From the NCBI GenBank assembly GCA_965226375.1, contig CBDDCX010000005.1, forward strand, positions 1 to 64,000: 64,000 nucleotides of DNA, read 5' to 3'. Positions 46,105 to 52,422 of this stretch are shown here, one piece after another. The DNA is from Longimicrobiales bacterium. Lineage in GTDB: Bacteria; Gemmatimonadota; Gemmatimonadetes; Longimicrobiales; Gaopeijiaceae. The position numbers were made by a program, and so were the translations under genes. The first letter of the stretch is position 1. Each line of letters starts with the position of its first letter. A model generated the notes under the pieces. The model saw nothing but the letters and a program-made list of their open reading frames with translations, did no database searches and was not told the origin of the DNA.

Positions 46105-47925
46105 TCACTCCCACTCGATCGTGCCTGGAGGTTTCGAGGTGATGTCGAGTGCCAGGCTGGACACACCGGGGAGGTCCAGGATCTGTTCGCGTAGATCGTT
46201 CAGCAAATCCGTAGGGAGCTCCACGGGAGAGGCCGTCATGGCTCTCTGTGACCGGATGGGCCGGACGACCACCATCTCGCCTTCTCGCCCGCCGACCTCG
46301 ATGGGAACGAGCACCGTCGGACATTGCCAGATCTCGTCATAGAGGTCGCGCCGGCGCAGCGCCTGCATGACGATGTCATCGGCCTCCCGCAGCGTGTCGA
46401 GTCGCGCCCGGGTAACTGTGGCCGCGATGGGTCGGGCCGTGGTCGGCGCTTCCGACGCCAGGTTCCAGATGCAGCGATTGATTCCGGGGATTTTCGCCGT
46501 GAGCAGCGACGCGGCATCGAGCAGGGTCGACCAAGCGACGTCTCCAGAGAGCAAGACAGGGTGCTCGTACGCCCGAAGATCGGCCTTCACGCCTACCGAA
46601 CGGATGGGAAGGACGAGCGCCTCGAGCCCGAACAGGCTCGCGGCCTCGGGCACCGAGTCGTGAGCCCCCTCGAGGCCCTCGACGTCCGGGACACCGTCGC
46701 TACAGAGGAGCCGGACGCCGAGGCCGGGCCCCGGGAAGGGATGGCGCCAAAGAGCCCCGTGGGGGATACCCAGCCGCTCCCCGAGCTCTCGCACCTCTAC
46801 CTTGTAGAGTTCGGCGAGGGGCTCCACCACAATTCCGCGGGCGATCATCTCCTGGATGACCGGCACCCGATTGTGGTGCGTCTTGATCGTGTCGGACCGC
46901 TTGGTGGCGCCCGTCTCGATGGTGTCCGGGTAGATCGTGCCCTGGCCCAGGAGATGGTCCTCGACACCCAATTCCCGAGCCTTCTCCTGAAAGACGCGGA
47001 TGAAGGTGTCTCCGATGATCCGGCGCTTCTCTTCCGGATCGATGGCCGTGGCCAGAGCGTCGAGGAAGGTGTCGCTCGCGTCTACGAAATGGAGATTCGT
47101 GTCGAGCCCCAGTTCCCCGAAGAGGTCCAACACTGCCCGGCTCTCGTCCTTCCGCATGAGCCCATTGTCTACGTGGAGGAGGTGCAGCCGTTCGGGGCCC
47201 AGCGCCTGTCCGATGACGGCGGCCGCAACTGTAGAGTCGACCCCGCCCGACGCCAAAAGGAAGACGGAGCGATCTCCGACCTGCTCGCTCACGCGGTTTC
47301 GTTGCTCCTCGATGAAGGCGTCCATGGACCAGGAGGCCGTACAGCCGCAGATGCCGAACACGAAATTTGCGATCATGTCGTCGCCCCGGATCGTGTCGTC
47401 GACCTCGGGGTGGAACTGAAACCCGTAACGTCGAAGCGAGTCTGAGCCGATGGCGGCGAAGCGGTGGTCGGGCGAGCCCTCGGCCGTCACCGTGTAACCC
47501 AGTTCCCGAAACTCCGGGCCGACTTCGACCACGGAGTCGTAGTGACTCATCCAAACGGGCTCTACCTCGTCGAGCCCCCGGAACAACGCATGATCCGGGT
47601 CTACGTGTAGATCGGCCCGACCCCATTCTCGTCCCCCGTGGACAATACGACCGCCATAGTGTTTGGCTATCTCCTGATGGCCGAAGCAGAAGCCCAGGAT
47701 GGGCGTGTCCAGGTCGTAGATCTCCTTGGTGTAGTCGGAGTCCTCGCCATGGGATGCAAGGCTGGGGCTGCCGGAGATGATGATCCCGCGATAGCCCTGG
47801 AAGGCGTCGATGGGGTCTTCAGGCTGCCGAATCTCGGCCAATACACCCCGCCGGCGAACCTTGTTGGCGATGAGGTGGGCGTACTGCCCTCCGAAGTCTA
47901 TGACGGCGATGCTATCGTGTGCCAT
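46105..47925 (-). CDS. guaA: GMP synthase (glutamine-hydrolysing), long form
   Basis: DFGGQYAHLI, GFCFGHQ, QFHPEV, SGGVDS, QGTIYPD, IKTHHN, HPFPGPGL, KPPGTIEWE. Confidence 0.95.
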   Translation of the reverse strand: MAHDSIAVIDFGGQYAHLIANKVRRRGVLAEIRQPEDPIDAFQGYRGIIISGSPSLASHGEDSDYTKEIYDLDTPILGFCFGHQEIAKHYGGRIVHGGREWGRADLHVDPDHALFRGLDEVEPVWMSHYDSVVEVGPEFRELGYTVTAEGSPDHRFAAIGSDSLRRYGFQFHPEVDDTIRGDDMIANFVFGICGCTASWSMDAFIEEQRNRVSEQVGDRSVFLLASGGVDSTVAAAVIGQALGPERLHLLHVDNGLMRKDESRAVLDLFGELGLDTNLHFVDASDTFLDALATAIDPEEKRRIIGDTFIRVFQEKARELGVEDHLLGQGTIYPDTIETGATKRSDTIKTHHNRVPVIQEMIARGIVVEPLAELYKVEVRELGERLGIPHGALWRHPFPGPGLGVRLLCSDGVPDVEGLEGAHDSVPEAASLFGLEALVLPIRSVGVKADLRAYEHPVLLSGDVAWSTLLDAASLLTAKIPGINRCIWNLASEAPTTARPIAATVTRARLDTLREADDIVMQALRRRDLYDEIWQCPTVLVPIEVGGREGEMVVVRPIRSQRAMTASPVELPTDLLNDLREQILDLPGVSSLALDITSKPPGTIEWE

Positions 47926-48136
47926 TGCTACCGTGAAGCCCTAGGAGGCATAGGTGGACCGTCGCGTTTGCGGCCCTCAGGGACCCAGATTACCAAGACC
48001 GGCCTTGGGTGGGAAGGGACGGGGTCACCTGTGGTAGGAGTCGGACTTGGGCGCGAGGCCCATTCGCTTTAGAATTGCTCTCTTGTTCGACAGTCTGTTC
48101 ATGGTGCCACGTGAAAATGGAGGAAAATGACGGCGT

Positions 48137-48913
48137 ATGGTTAGGGCTACCGCCAAGAAGGCCGCGATGGCTTGTCTGGTGGCCGCATTTGGTGTTCAGA
48201 CCACCCTCGTCTACACGGACACGCGTCAGGACCCTCTGTCCGAGGCGGCCCTTCGCGGTCGTTCCCTATGGCACGACAATGCCTGCCAGGTCTGCCACCA
48301 GGTGTATGGGCAGGGTGGCTTTCTGGGTCCGGATCTTACCAACGCCGCCAGCCGCATGGACAGATCCCGGCTCGAATCGCTCCTGACTGTGGGCAGCGGA
48401 CAGATGCCGCCGTTTCACTTCACGCCAGAGCAGATCGACGCCGTCGCCGCCTATCTCGAGGCGTTGGATCGCCCCGATTTGGGTCAGGGACAGCTGCGCC
48501 TCGGATCCGCACCGGAAGGGAGCGGGCCCTGGGGAGTCTTCGATGCGGTGGTGGATGATGCTTTGAGTACGGCGTCCCCCGAAGCGAGTGCCGGATATGT
48601 GGCGTTCAAAGCCCGGCCTTGTAGCAGCTGTCACCTTCCCTTGAGCGACTCTCCGGTAGGCGCCCCTGATCTTTCCACGGTCACGGGGCGTCTCAGTTCG
48701 GGGGAGCTGGAGCAGGTGCTCATGGTGGGTCGCCCGGCGGCGGGGATGCCGCCCCCGATTCCGGCTTTCGAGCCGTCAGAGCGGGAGGCGGTGGTCGAGT
48801 TCCTCCGCTGGCTGAGTGACAACCGGGAAGAGCTCGAGGTGAGCTTGGCCAGAGGGTCGTCGGGAGCGGCACCCATCGATTGGGGACGAGTGCCGTGGTG
48901 GGAGTTCCGATGA
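48137..48913 (+). CDS. Membrane-anchored di-heme cytochrome c, N-domain NorC-like
   Basis: N-terminal TM; CQVCH..GPDLT..QMP; second CSSCH..APDL..GMP. Confidence 0.85.
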   Translation: MVRATAKKAAMACLVAAFGVQTTLVYTDTRQDPLSEAALRGRSLWHDNACQVCHQVYGQGGFLGPDLTNAASRMDRSRLESLLTVGSGQMPPFHFTPEQIDAVAAYLEALDRPDLGQGQLRLGSAPEGSGPWGVFDAVVDDALSTASPEASAGYVAFKARPCSSCHLPLSDSPVGAPDLSTVTGRLSSGELEQVLMVGRPAAGMPPPIPAFEPSEREAVVEFLRWLSDNREELEVSLARGSSGAAPIDWGRVPWWEFR

Positions 48914-50424
48914 GCCGGGTGAGCGAGCAGGGGGGAGGGACCGGCACGCTGGAGCGACCTGCAGCTGCGGAGCCGGCCTTGGTCGGCACCGAGCTGCGGA
49001 TCCTTCCGTTCGAGGATGCCGACCCGGTACGTCAGTTCGCGACGCTGACCTTCGTGCGTGGCGGGCTCATCGCGATTGCCATCACGCTCGTGGGTGGTCT
49101 GCTCGGGGCCCTGTATTCGGTCCCGTCCCTAGCGCCCACCTTCCAGTCCCTCGGTCTCGACTTGAGGCAGCTACGCCCCATTCACACAACGTTCGCCTCT
49201 GCATGGATCTTTCTCGGCGGCATGGCCGTGGTTCATCGCTACCTCATGGATCACGGAGGTCCGGCCACATCAGGAGATCGCTGGAGGCTGCGGGTGCAGG
49301 TACTCTGCTGGGCTGCGGCAGGCTTTGGAATCCTCGTCACACTCCTGGCCGGTGTCGGTTCGGGTCGGGAGTACGTGGGTTTTCACCCGGCCTTCTCGGT
49401 ACTCATCCTGGTCGGTTGGCTCTGCTACGCCTGGAACTTCTTCCGCGTCGTCGGACCCGGCTTCTGGAACCGCCCCCTCTACGTGACGATGTGGGGCGTC
49501 GGGACGGTGTTCTTCGTCTACACGTTCCTTGAACAGCATGCTTACCTCCTTTCTGGGTTATGGGAAGATCCGGTGCAGGATCTGCGGGTCCAATGGAAGG
49601 CGACCGGCACCATGGTGGGGACCTTCAACCTCTTCGTGTACGGCTCCGTCATCTACATCGGAGAGCGCATCTCCGGGGATGCCGAGTACGGACATTCACG
49701 GACCGCGTACGCGCTGTTCACGGTAAGCCTCCTGAACTCCTTCACGAATTTTGCGCACCACACCTACCATCTCCCCCAGCGTGAGCTCGTGAAGTGGATC
49801 GCATTCGTGGTGAGCATGATGGAGGTGATCATTCTGGTCCGGGCCGTTTCGGACCTGGTCAAGCTGGTGCGGACCCAGGAGGACAGGCCGTTCTGTGCCA
49901 CCAGGGGCAGCTTCGCCGCCGCCAAGTACTGGTCTGTGGCTATCGTCGGCTCCGCGGTGCTGATCTCCATTCCGCCGCTGAACGCGATCATCCATGGCAC
50001 GTATGCAGTTACGGGTCACGCCATGGGAGCCACGATCGGAATCGACACGATGATCCTGTTGGGCGCCGTGATCTGGATCGTGGGCGAATACCTGAGGGCC
50101 CGGGGGGACGAAGTCGCCTCGGATCCGCTTCACTGCACGCAAATGAGGTGGTCGGTCATAGGTCTCAATGTCGGGGTCGCCCTCCTGGTGCTGTGGCTCC
50201 ACGTGGTGGGTGTGGTCACGGGCGTCACCCGCATGCGCCTTGCACCGGCGGAGACGTATATCCCACCGGCCTGGCTCGGGGCGTCGTCGGGAGTCGTTTT
50301 CGCGCTCACAGGGGCGATCGCCTTCGTCTTCTTCGGTTCGGTCCTCGCCACGCTGATCCCTCTTTCATTCCCGGAATTTCCTAGTTTAAGGTCTTGCGGT
50401 TCTCGCTCAAGAGTGCGATATTGA
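48910..50424 (+). CDS. Heme-copper oxidase superfamily catalytic subunit (NorB/CcoN-like), non-canonical active site; last 17 aa contributed by IS
   Basis: About 12 TM; LRPIHT (helix II His), DLRVQWK, AHHTY, SMMEV, HGTYAVTGHAMG; ATGA overlap with the cytochrome c gene. Confidence 0.8.
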   Translation: MSRVSEQGGGTGTLERPAAAEPALVGTELRILPFEDADPVRQFATLTFVRGGLIAIAITLVGGLLGALYSVPSLAPTFQSLGLDLRQLRPIHTTFASAWIFLGGMAVVHRYLMDHGGPATSGDRWRLRVQVLCWAAAGFGILVTLLAGVGSGREYVGFHPAFSVLILVGWLCYAWNFFRVVGPGFWNRPLYVTMWGVGTVFFVYTFLEQHAYLLSGLWEDPVQDLRVQWKATGTMVGTFNLFVYGSVIYIGERISGDAEYGHSRTAYALFTVSLLNSFTNFAHHTYHLPQRELVKWIAFVVSMMEVIILVRAVSDLVKLVRTQEDRPFCATRGSFAAAKYWSVAIVGSAVLISIPPLNAIIHGTYAVTGHAMGATIGIDTMILLGAVIWIVGEYLRARGDEVASDPLHCTQMRWSVIGLNVGVALLVLWLHVVGVVTGVTRMRLAPAETYIPPAWLGASSGVVFALTGAIAFVFFGSVLATLIPLSFPEFPSLRSCGSRSRVRY

Positions 50425-50458
50425 ATCTGTCACCGAACCCCGGACAGGCGAGTACCGC

Positions 50459-51343
50459 ATGAACATCGTAGAAATCTTCGAGCAATTCCCAACCCAGAAA
50501 GACTGCATCAACCACCTCGAAAAGGCCAGATGGGGCGTAAAGCCAAGGTGCCCCTACTGCCAATCGCTGAACACCGCGCCTAGCCAACATCGTCACCGTT
50601 GTTACGAATGCAAAACCTCGTTCAGTGTCACAGTCGGAACGATCTTTCACCACACACACCTACCGCTCCAAAAGTGGTTTCTCGCCATCATGCTCATGCT
50701 GAACGCGAAGAAGGGGCTTTCCGCGCTTCAGCTATCTCGGGATCTCAAGGTCAACAAGAACACGGCGTGGCGGATCACCATGCAAGTCAGAAAGGCCATG
50801 GCACAATCCGAACATCGGAACCTGCTAACGGGCATCGTCGAGATGGACGAGACCTATGTGGGCGGGAAGCCGAGGAGGGGAACCAAAGGCGATAGGCCGG
50901 ACGGCCAGCACACGCGGGGACGCGGCACCAAGAAAGCTCCTGTTGTCGGTGCCGTGGAGCGTGGAGGTAACGTCACAGCTAAGACGGTAGCCAAGGATAA
51001 GCTTAAGGGTCGTCACCTTCGCGCCTTCGTTCGGGCGCGAATCAACACTGAGCGAGCTTGCCTGATAACGGACGAGTACAAGGGCTATCTCGGAATGTCG
51101 AAGGTGCTTCCGCATGCGGTCATCAAGCACTCCGACTGGTATGTGGACGGCGATCTCCACACGAACACGATTGAGGGCTTCTGGGCACTCCTGAAGCGTG
51201 GAATGTTCGGCCAGTTCCACAGCGTCAGCCGAAAGCACCTACAACGCTACATAGACGAATTCTGCTACCGCTACAACCTCCGTGGCGTAGAGCCGGATCA
51301 CAGCTTCTTGCTCACGATAGATCGCGGGCTGGGGGTGGCATGA
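50459..51343 (+). CDS. IS1595-family transposase
   Basis: Zn ribbon CPYC..CYEC, FSVTVGTIF, EMDETYVGG, ITDEY, HTNTIEGFW, YIDEFCYRYN. Confidence 0.95.
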   Translation: MNIVEIFEQFPTQKDCINHLEKARWGVKPRCPYCQSLNTAPSQHRHRCYECKTSFSVTVGTIFHHTHLPLQKWFLAIMLMLNAKKGLSALQLSRDLKVNKNTAWRITMQVRKAMAQSEHRNLLTGIVEMDETYVGGKPRRGTKGDRPDGQHTRGRGTKKAPVVGAVERGGNVTAKTVAKDKLKGRHLRAFVRARINTERACLITDEYKGYLGMSKVLPHAVIKHSDWYVDGDLHTNTIEGFWALLKRGMFGQFHSVSRKHLQRYIDEFCYRYNLRGVEPDHSFLLTIDRGLGVA

Positions 51344-52254
51344 TGAGTGACGAGCCGCTGAGAGTCATTGCCGGTGCACCAGATCGACCGCTGATCATAG
51401 GCGAAATCGAGATACCATGCTACGTCCTGGAAGACGAGACTCGTGTCCTTAGCCAGGGAGGATTTGCTCGGGCCATAGGAAGAACAGGCGGCCCGAAAAA
51501 AGGTGCCACAGATGACATCTTCAAACTACCTGTTTTTTTGCAGCCTAGGAACCTTAAACCCTTTATTACCAATGATTTGACCAGCTCTTCAATACCAGTC
51601 CTGTTTCAGGCTACAACTGGCGGTACCGTGGCGATTGGATACCGGGCAGAAATACTACCAGCAGTCTGTGAAGTCTATTTGAAGGCGCAAGATGCCGGAG
51701 CCCTGCGTACATCGCAACAGCACATTGCTGATCGGGCTGAAATCCTCCTGCGCGGTCTCGCGACCGTTGGTATCATCGCGCTGGTCGATGAAGCGACTGG
51801 CTACCAACGAATCAGGGAGAAACGTGCGCTCGCTACCATCCTTGAGAAGTTCATCGCCGAGGACCTTCAGCCTTGGACCCGGACCTTCCCATTTGAATTC
51901 TACGAACAGATTTTCCGCCTAAAGGGTTGGACTGGATCGGCTTCCGCCGAGCGACCGTCAGTAATCGGCCACTACACAAACGATTTCGTCTATAAGCGAT
52001 TGGCCCCAGGGATACTAAAGGAACTTCGTAAACTGAATCCCGTTCAGCCTGATACCAAAGCACGGCGTCACAGACACCACCAATGGTTCACTCCTGATTT
52101 AGGACATCCGAAACTACGGGAGCACTTGGCCGCCGTGCTCGCGCTCATGAAGGCCGCTCCAAACTGGAACAATTTCAAGCGAAGCTTGGCCCGGGCATTC
52201 CCCAAACCTGACCACACAATTGAACTTCTGTTGGACGATGAGGTGAAGGGGTGA
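51340..52254 (+). CDS. P63C domain protein (IS passenger)
   Basis: IPCYVLED.TRVLSQ, GLATVGIIALVDEATGYQ, PWTRTFP, YKRLAPG, RHHQW..GHPKL. Confidence 0.85.
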   Translation: MMSDEPLRVIAGAPDRPLIIGEIEIPCYVLEDETRVLSQGGFARAIGRTGGPKKGATDDIFKLPVFLQPRNLKPFITNDLTSSSIPVLFQATTGGTVAIGYRAEILPAVCEVYLKAQDAGALRTSQQHIADRAEILLRGLATVGIIALVDEATGYQRIREKRALATILEKFIAEDLQPWTRTFPFEFYEQIFRLKGWTGSASAERPSVIGHYTNDFVYKRLAPGILKELRKLNPVQPDTKARRHRHHQWFTPDLGHPKLREHLAAVLALMKAAPNWNNFKRSLARAFPKPDHTIELLLDDEVKG

Positions 52255-52422
52255 ATCTGGGAAGACTCGGACAAGCCTGGCGAGCCATATCCTGAAGGCC
52301 AATCTCCATGTTCGTCGAATGTCAAGACCTTAAACTAGGAAATTCCGTTCATTCCGGACCTTTCGGACGGCCGACTCGGCTTGACCGCCCCCACCTGTAG
52401 CCCACGAAGAGAGATCTGATCC

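Follow-up and report, generated by a model that had tools for sequence, protein, structure and literature searches.

Several active-site designs support nitric oxide (NO) reduction in the haem-copper superfamily (Murali et al., PNAS 2024; PMC11214002): nNOR combines a His/Met low-spin haem with the His/Glu site of cNOR, and gNOR, which the main text of that paper regards as the earliest known case of a family with an exchanged active-site His, carries Asp in its place. The same paper names a further family close to cNOR, 'N2O red' (N2Ored), that 'might serve as' a nitrous oxide (N2O) reductase insensitive to both acetylene and sulfide, a proposal of a single sentence that cites two Flexibacter canadensis papers and is made likewise in the preprint; the main text gives no active-site residues for N2O red. 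With GTDB genome counts of 293 vs 344 for sNOR (Table 1, PMC11214002), the family is common and apparently uncharacterised: in the literature searched, subscription papers being outside its scope, only PMC11214002 and its preprint describe it, no assay or characterisation was found, and the accessible parts of 10.1101/592808, PMC12067857 and PMC10390337 do not describe it. Here we analyse 64,000 nucleotides of a Longimicrobiales bacterium (assembly GCA_965226375.1, contig CBDDCX010000005.1, positions 1 to 64,000; this whole stretch is the window), in which a gene pair encodes a dihaem cytochrome c and a haem-copper subunit I that very probably belongs to N2O red. We found that subunit I has Gly at the position of the helix-VI metal-ligand His, Lys one turn earlier and Met in place of a low-spin haem His, and that these changes are family-wide; two-electron NO reduction or scavenging is the leading, if tentative, candidate for its function.

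The ATG of the subunit I open reading frame (504 amino acids) overlaps the stop of the upstream cytochrome c gene, and its product matches Pfam COX1 at E 2e-20. Fractions in the following list refer to 329 distinct full-length homologues of at least 400 amino acids from pooled searches, a set that includes the query and three 98%-identical copies and from which the aberrant or chimeric P0133, P0170, P0187, P0200, P0202 and P0243 were left out.

48137 to 48913, plus strand: membrane-anchored dihaem cytochrome c of 258 amino acids, CQVCH at 50 and CSSCH at 162, putative NorC-like partner
48910 to 50424, plus strand: haem-copper superfamily subunit I, 12 predicted transmembrane helices, very probably N2O red (Pfam COX1, profile alignment, fold)
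49183 to 49185, plus strand: H92 on helix II, predicted low-spin haem ligand, aligned to the helix-II His of NorB and CcoN (329/329)
49363 to 49374, plus strand: GREY loop, with E154 at the Glu of NorB GRE, the Ca2+ ligand Glu135 (326/329)
49597 to 49608, plus strand: helix VI K230-x-x-G233, the place of the CuB/FeB His being taken by Gly, with Lys one turn earlier, from alignment and conservation
49735 to 49761, plus strand: helix VII N276, N280, H283 and H284, the His pair kept (311, 303, 328 and 329 of 329)
49813 to 49824, plus strand: helix VIII S302 and E305, equivalent to NorB S277 and E280 (E305 in 314/329)
50017 to 50025, plus strand: helix X H370-A-M372 (H370 in 329/329, M372 in 327/329)

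Residues were mapped through a 57-sequence profile alignment to Pseudomonas aeruginosa NorB (3o0r_B) and to CcoN (9g6b_A). D224-T234 lies ungapped on NorB D198-L208, which places G233 on H207, K230 on W204 and D224 on D198, and the QWK..G of subunit I lies on QWWYGH of CcoN; NorB E211 falls in a one-residue gap and has no counterpart. Further equivalences are N240 with E215, H283/H284 with H258/H259, H370 with H347 and M372 with H349, so that on helix X the high-spin haem His is kept and Met replaces the second low-spin haem His by this alignment. Counting from it, S353 (kept in 314 of the 329) corresponds to T330, and the T330-S277-E280 chain described for cNOR, where Glu135 is a Ca2+ ligand (PMC3431322), is retained as S353, S302 and E305. 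The Ca2+ and proton-path positions of cNOR are kept across the family as E154, D/E224, S302, E305 and S353. An earlier note on this DNA, made from the letters, had listed the motifs RPIH (H92), DLRVQWKATGTMVG (K230, G233), AHHTY (H283, H284), SMMEV (E305) and GHAM (H370, M372); all are present, and its register, with the helix-VI His opposite Gly and a Lys three residues before, is correct against both NorB and CcoN.

When examining the 329 homologues, we observe Gly at position 233 in 313, Asp in 15 and Ala in one, and Lys at position 230 in 312 and His in 15, so the motifs highlighted in that note, including M372, are properties of the family. None of the 329 has a His at 231-237, nor one at 372 that would give HxH, and Arg precedes H92 by three residues (R89) in 324. 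As the note observed for the query, the Tyr of CcoN type before the His pair is lacking: no conserved Tyr occurs at 231-243 or 271-280, any Tyr at 271-280 is found in three sequences, and the conserved Y244 is, counted along the sequence, three turns below the site. With two of the four FeB ligands gone and a probable His92/Met372 low-spin haem, the description of a haem-copper subunit with an altered site stands. Because two FeB ligands are gone and no cross-link Tyr exists, standard four-electron O2 reduction is unlikely; the note's proposal of chemistry other than standard O2 or NO reduction is supported for O2, and its non-NO half was not established, NO being narrowly the leading candidate.

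Fifteen of the 329 homologues differ jointly: they have His230, Asp233, Ala305 and Ala353, and neither 276 nor 280 is Asn. Members (P0219, P0229, P0237, P0241, P0244, P0246, P0249, P0250, P0253, P0254, P0256, P0259, P0265 and P0272) carry QWHxxD in helix VI and frequently HHH in helix VII, and keep HxM; those with a named source are from Gammaproteobacteria and Opitutales. In a quick tree, 14 of the 15 fall in a single clade (SH-aLRT 99), the sister group of the Lys type, and amount to one evolutionary event; this His230/Asp233 clade is an apparently undescribed second active-site design. Since the 15 sequences differ together, the site positions act as a set. This bears on the possibility that the protein performs no bulk turnover and is a haem gas-binding, sensing or electron-relay module without non-haem metal, which the loss of two metal ligands would suit, as would the lack of a NorQ-type gene in the window and of any recurring accessory gene in 80 genome loci. 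We consider it improbable: H283, H284, K230, E305, S353 and three Asn persist in about 95% of the 329 and co-vary in the sister clade, a pattern from which a working site is expected, and no signalling partner recurs in genome or metagenome loci. Moreover, some cNORs are without NorQD (PMC12067857). The earlier note's report of no norQ/D or ccoP/GHIS genes nearby holds for the NorQ type, with no AAA_5 (MoxR/NorQ-type) match in the window, where no dedicated norD search was made. Separately, one genome (G002) has two near-identical family copies (L018, L019) in which the His pair is followed by LPG where LPQ is usual.

The overall architecture is that of cNOR. A profile was required for finding solved relatives, as a single-sequence PDB search gave nothing useful; the best profile matches were 4xyd_A (E 1.2e-27) and 3o0r_B (8.5e-22), then CcoN (8e-20). 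The fold model has 12 helices (pLDDT 89.6), and VIA-align placed it on 4xyd_A at Z 40.7 (root-mean-square deviation 2.4 A over 427 residues), on 3o0r_B at 38.4, on CcoN 3mk7 at 38.3 and on qNOR folds at Z 30-32. The ESM Atlas returned COX1-family clusters only, and NCBIfam PRK14485 scored 19 bits against a cut-off of 1080. In the quick tree, which is unfinished and includes no NorB row and no NO reductase (NOR) outgroup, 66 family rows formed one group (SH-aLRT 98), apart from the A-type, eNOR and two C-type rows. Near one family member, at L109 3343-5337 on the minus strand, lies a gene for a CcoN-like protein whose helix VI reads YMHQGVG; it is flanked by an Rrf2 gene on one side and RIC/globin-like genes on the other.

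Pairing with the cytochrome c is persistent. Of 80 genome loci, 76 have a homologue of it next to the subunit I gene, as do 68 of 80 metagenome loci; many of the other loci stop at a contig edge. The partner carries two haem motifs in 71 of 74 loci of the query's branch. We modelled subunit I residues 30-490 with cytochrome c residues 1-125 and obtained an ipSAE of 0.86 vs 0.00 for the best of three controls, with at least 74% of contacts agreeing between runs and a partner pLDDT of at least 83; the mark applied is reached by 116 of 157 solved complexes and 2 of 215 mismatched pairs. This model points to the cytochrome c as a NorC-like partner, and its success may reflect likeness to solved NorBC. 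Five distant homologues (P0149, P0163, P0185, P0189 and P0192) have C-terminal fusions to cytochrome c domains, three of them with a FixO-like domain and further haem domains.

From the observed sequence, conservation, fold, gene pairing and context counts we infer the cofactors, the role of Lys230 and the substrate as follows. The pair would form a two-subunit, NorBC-like membrane haem enzyme of the N2O red family, in which, by homology, electrons would enter through the dihaem cytochrome c and pass to a His92/Met372 low-spin haem and on to a His370 high-spin haem, with Ca2+ bridging both haems as in cNOR. The distal site would comprise His283, His284 and the gap left by Gly233, with Lys230, Asn276, Asn280, Asn240 and Glu305 around it and a metal optional. 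Lys230 would most likely reach into the space left by the His, either to complete a loosely bound metal as its third ligand or to stand in for the metal as a fixed positive charge.

The family assignment follows from the published datasets. In Dataset S6 of PMC11214002, the genome SZUA-318 is scored A 1, C 1, eNOR 1 and N2Ored 1; its four COX1 matches are an A type, a CcoN, a protein with the eNOR motif and a family member 70% identical to the query, which fills the N2Ored slot because the other three fill theirs. The taxa agree (Bacteroidota, marine Gemmatimonadota, Planctomycetota and some Gammaproteobacteria), and G002, with two A-type and two family copies, resembles a Dataset S6 row of A 2, N2Ored 2, the link of row to genome being unconfirmed. 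It weighs against the assignment that it was reached in one clean genome by elimination and not with the authors' hidden Markov model. There is also one discordance, J028, listed as N2Ored 0 and yet carrying the gene, frameshifted into two reading frames. None of the 11 listed N2Ored reference proteins turned up among 20 clusters looked up. The earlier note had allowed for an already characterised family; the family is very probably already named, and its characterisation was not found. Databases label the homologues norB or ccoN, and, among comparable genomes of the parts of Datasets S6 and S8 consulted, S8 gives a cNOR count one higher in six N2Ored carriers (Pontibacter roseus, Flavobacterium macrobrachii, F. 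columnare_C, Aequorivita vladivostokensis, Amniculibacterium aquaticum and Cloacibacterium normanense), so that it seems to count N2O red as cNOR in some genomes (PMC11214002).

Turning to function, NO reduction or scavenging is the best single guess because of ancestry, the retained cNOR parts and NO-stress neighbours; the NO role would then probably be that of a low-turnover sink and not of a respiratory NOR. In 45 dereplicated locus groups of the Bacteroidota-like branch, each at least 8 kb, a RIC, Rrf2 regulator or truncated-globin-like gene occurs in 22, several of them forming a single run with the pair on one strand; globin and hemerythrin are assigned by our own reading of the sequences. 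Genes or clusters of nos type lie beside the pair in 11 of the 45, nos together with RIC, Rrf2 or globin in six, and nirK in one locus pair; only the cytochrome c is a more frequent neighbour in the branch than the nitrogen-oxide genes RIC, Rrf2 and nos. Furthermore, in the source genome (G000), its congener G211 and G193, nirK was found and the family member is the only non-A-type superfamily member found. The source genome, 90% complete, has two A-type oxidases besides subunit I, and no ccoN-type oxidase was found in it. His/Met ligation alone has a precedent in nNOR (PMC11214002).

A number of observations weigh against an NO role. By sequence, two of the four FeB ligands are absent, and Glu211, described as critical for cNOR activity (PMC3431322), appears to have no counterpart. 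The NO-stress context does not reach the query's branch, as the 80 loci nearest the query hold RIC in none and Rrf2 and NosZ in one each. Most carriers are without an NO source of their own: nirK passes the cut-off in 2 of 31 carriers (32 genomes matched the family, of which G015, at E 5e-4, was dropped as a non-member) vs 23 of the 201 genomes of the class sample, and a nirS-type match was found in 0 of 32 genomes, where the control was silent too. Even the nirK of the source genome (L098 1477-2650; contig C6 near 341614-342474, minus strand) is frameshifted near its start in this assembly, between the N-terminal part and the catalytic domain; that of G211 is an open frame of 480 amino acids. 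By hand count, another NOR is present in 27 of 111 rows of Dataset S6 (PMC11214002). Cloacibacterium CB-01 has a 'cNor' gene yet minor NO reductase activity (PMC11168931, PMC9239227); all four Cloacibacterium rows of Dataset S6 give cNOR 0 and two give N2Ored 1 (PMC11214002), and the CB-01 gene, unchecked, may belong to N2O red, which would count against a fast NOR. Two weaker nirK-model matches in the source genome were set aside as multicopper oxidases by their C-terminal motifs, not NosZ, and six molybdopterin matches were judged by eye not to be Nar or Nap. Two molybdopterin oxidoreductases there (L101 and L102, contig C8) have one in-frame TGA each, possibly for selenocysteine.

When considering nosZ instead, the counts draw attention to a NosZ-independent N2O reductase, proposed in PMC11214002, in which the open pocket left by the His-to-Gly change would bind N2O, either at the haem or at a metal held by two His, and the leaving oxygen would be protonated by Lys230 together with the Glu305 chain. 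We regard this as possible, below NO chemistry. Genus g35 supplies 21 of the 31 carriers, and phylogeny-blind co-occurrence statistics were therefore not used; searches with PF18764, PF02239 and TIGR04246 whose controls were silent do not prove absence, TIGR04246 having matched in 68 of the 201 genomes. Overall, nosZ is present in 4 of 31 carriers vs 68 of 201 in the class sample. Within family f7 it occurs in 2 of 24 carriers vs 16 of 26 non-carriers, and in g35 in none of the 21 carriers, a non-carrier of that genus (G084) having both nosZ and eNOR; because of that eNOR, g35 does not separate NO from N2O. Outside g35 the rate is 4 of 10, like that of the class, and g35 itself amounts to about one evolutionary event. 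Neither nosZ nor nosD was found in the 90%-complete source genome, and nosZ was not found in G210, G211, G217 and G221, where the control was silent too. In the accessible dataset rows of PMC11214002, all five Chryseobacterium looked up have napAB, nirK, qNOR and N2Ored and no nosZ, the pattern expected of a last step, and Solitalea canadensis, on which the N2O proposal is based, has N2Ored 1; the latter also has nosZ and nosD, which could explain that organism's activity. In Dataset S8, nosZ is present in 11 of 17 N2Ored genomes, a sample biased by having been chosen for carrying NOR (PMC11214002). The nos cluster beside the pair in 11 of the 45 groups supports a link to N2O, and there a second N2O reductase would be redundant. 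In addition, N2O is a poor metal ligand, and we know of no haem-based N2O reductase.

Some of the same data would fit another two-electron reaction at a haem with a His/Lys pocket at low oxygen, acting on peroxide, nitrite or hydroxylamine or slowly scavenging O2, which we rate as doubtful, slightly below N2O reduction. Such chemistry needs no Tyr, and a distal His with a cationic residue recalls peroxidases. By the searches run, 26 of the 31 class carriers are without nirK over the cut-off and without nosZ, which fits a role outside denitrification, and general low-oxygen genes recur in the Bacteroidota-like loci (tryptophanase in 19 of 80, CRP/FNR in 12, class II ribonucleotide reductase in 7 and U32 proteins in 5). 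However, no such substrate has a positive link, most carriers have A-type oxidases for O2, and in that branch the nitrogen-oxide genes rank second to the cytochrome c among the neighbours. As an observation in its own right, tryptophanase/tyrosine phenol-lyase genes stand beside the pair in those 19 loci (including L130, L145, L156, L163, L164, L166, L171, L178, L183 and L186-L188), and between both genes in L168, L172 and L188.

This copy of the subunit I gene carries an insertion that the earlier note had overlooked, with the following features.

50372 to 52347, no strand assigned: IS1595-family element, 1976 bp long and bounded by perfect 25-nt terminal inverted repeats
50459 to 51343, plus strand: IS1595 transposase (PF12762, PF12760)
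51340 to 52254, plus strand: passenger gene for a P63C-domain protein (PF10546) inside the element
52356 to 52384, plus strand: displaced natural 3' end of the subunit I gene, its last nine codons and stop, restoring the 496-amino-acid form

An 8-bp target duplication, TTCATTCC, flanks the element at 50364-50371 and 52348-52355. The element, present in one copy in the source genome, sits in codon 488 and swaps the last 9 natural residues for 17 of its own; the uninterrupted 496-residue form ends like homologue P0003. Contigs of three of four runs read straight across the empty site; the insertion must therefore be recent, and it is polymorphic among runs. One might accordingly suspect a decayed cNOR or a sequencing error, with the element in the last codons in its favour. 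We give this a negligible chance, as the insertion lies behind the last transmembrane helix in the model and probably leaves the enzyme core intact, contigs of independent runs show 0 to 3 differences from the gene, and G233 and HAM are present in 121 of 121 close homologues, with the same motifs across several phyla. The altered motifs are not decay because the homologues likewise lack the helix-VI His, and conservation in the 121 close and 329 full-length homologues refutes that explanation.

Elsewhere in the window the neighbours are housekeeping genes, with GMP synthase upstream and an aminotransferase downstream of the pair. No sigma-70-like promoter was seen in 47900-48200, and one RNA run gave a 180-nt contig identical to the 5' region of the cytochrome c gene at depth 4, too little for a claim of transcription. 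The nearest named relative of subunit I, at 91% identity, is from a Longimicrobiales genome.

The family was already named and is not discovered here; what we add is the residue map, the sister clade, the two-way co-occurrence counts and the cultured strains. A metal-ligand His once thought invariant is lost in this family, and its chemistry bears on what the haem-copper scaffold requires. Nitrogen-cycle surveys may score N2O red as an N2O source, and it might be a sink, or neither. Should the possible but less favoured N2O reading be true, the reaction would be haem-based, NosZ-independent and possibly copper-independent, with Lys replacing the missing ligand or the metal; marine Gemmatimonadota and Planctomycetota would then hold a sink for N2O that has gone uncounted, and Chryseobacterium lacking nosZ would have the final step of denitrification. 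As carriers without nosZ are in culture, among them the environmental Chryseobacterium daecheongense, C. hispalense, C. limigenitum and Flavobacterium antarcticum, the N2O question can be put to a direct test.

Upon comparison with known systems, N2O red shares with subunit I a place in the C-family branch close to cNOR, the lack of an active-site Tyr and the same taxa, with no difference shown. The best sequence and fold match is cNOR (NorBC; P. aeruginosa 3O0R and R. denitrificans 4XYD), at 17% identity and Z 40.7: the upstream cytochrome c gene, the GRE Ca2+ loop and the D198, S277, E280, T330, H258/H259 and H347 positions are all kept. In contrast to cNOR, H207 is Gly, E211 is absent, E215 is Asn, H349 is Met and W204 is Lys, the partner has two haem motifs and the window has no NorQ-type gene; neither the three-His/one-Glu FeB site nor the bis-His low-spin haem (HxH on helix X) is found here. 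The CcoN subunit of cbb3 oxidases is close in fold (Z 38.3), its helix VI can be aligned free of the gap that NorB requires, and some family homologues are fused to FixO/cbb3-like cytochrome domains; however, subunit I has no helix-VI CuB His, no helix-VII Tyr, HxM for HxH, and a helix-VIII Glu. With nNOR it shares the motif of a His/Met low-spin haem, the ligation being predicted, and the likeness to gNOR is limited to the sister clade, which has Asp at 233 where the query has Gly; both are derived from the B family with a cupredoxin-type subunit II, whereas subunit I belongs to the C/cNOR branch and is paired with a cytochrome c. NOD and qNOR are one long polypeptide with a fused N-terminal domain and no haem c subunit, unlike the 496-504 amino acids and separate cytochrome c found here. 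Overall, subunit I lacks the defining features of cNOR, cbb3, nNOR, gNOR and NOD, yet it is built like cNOR.

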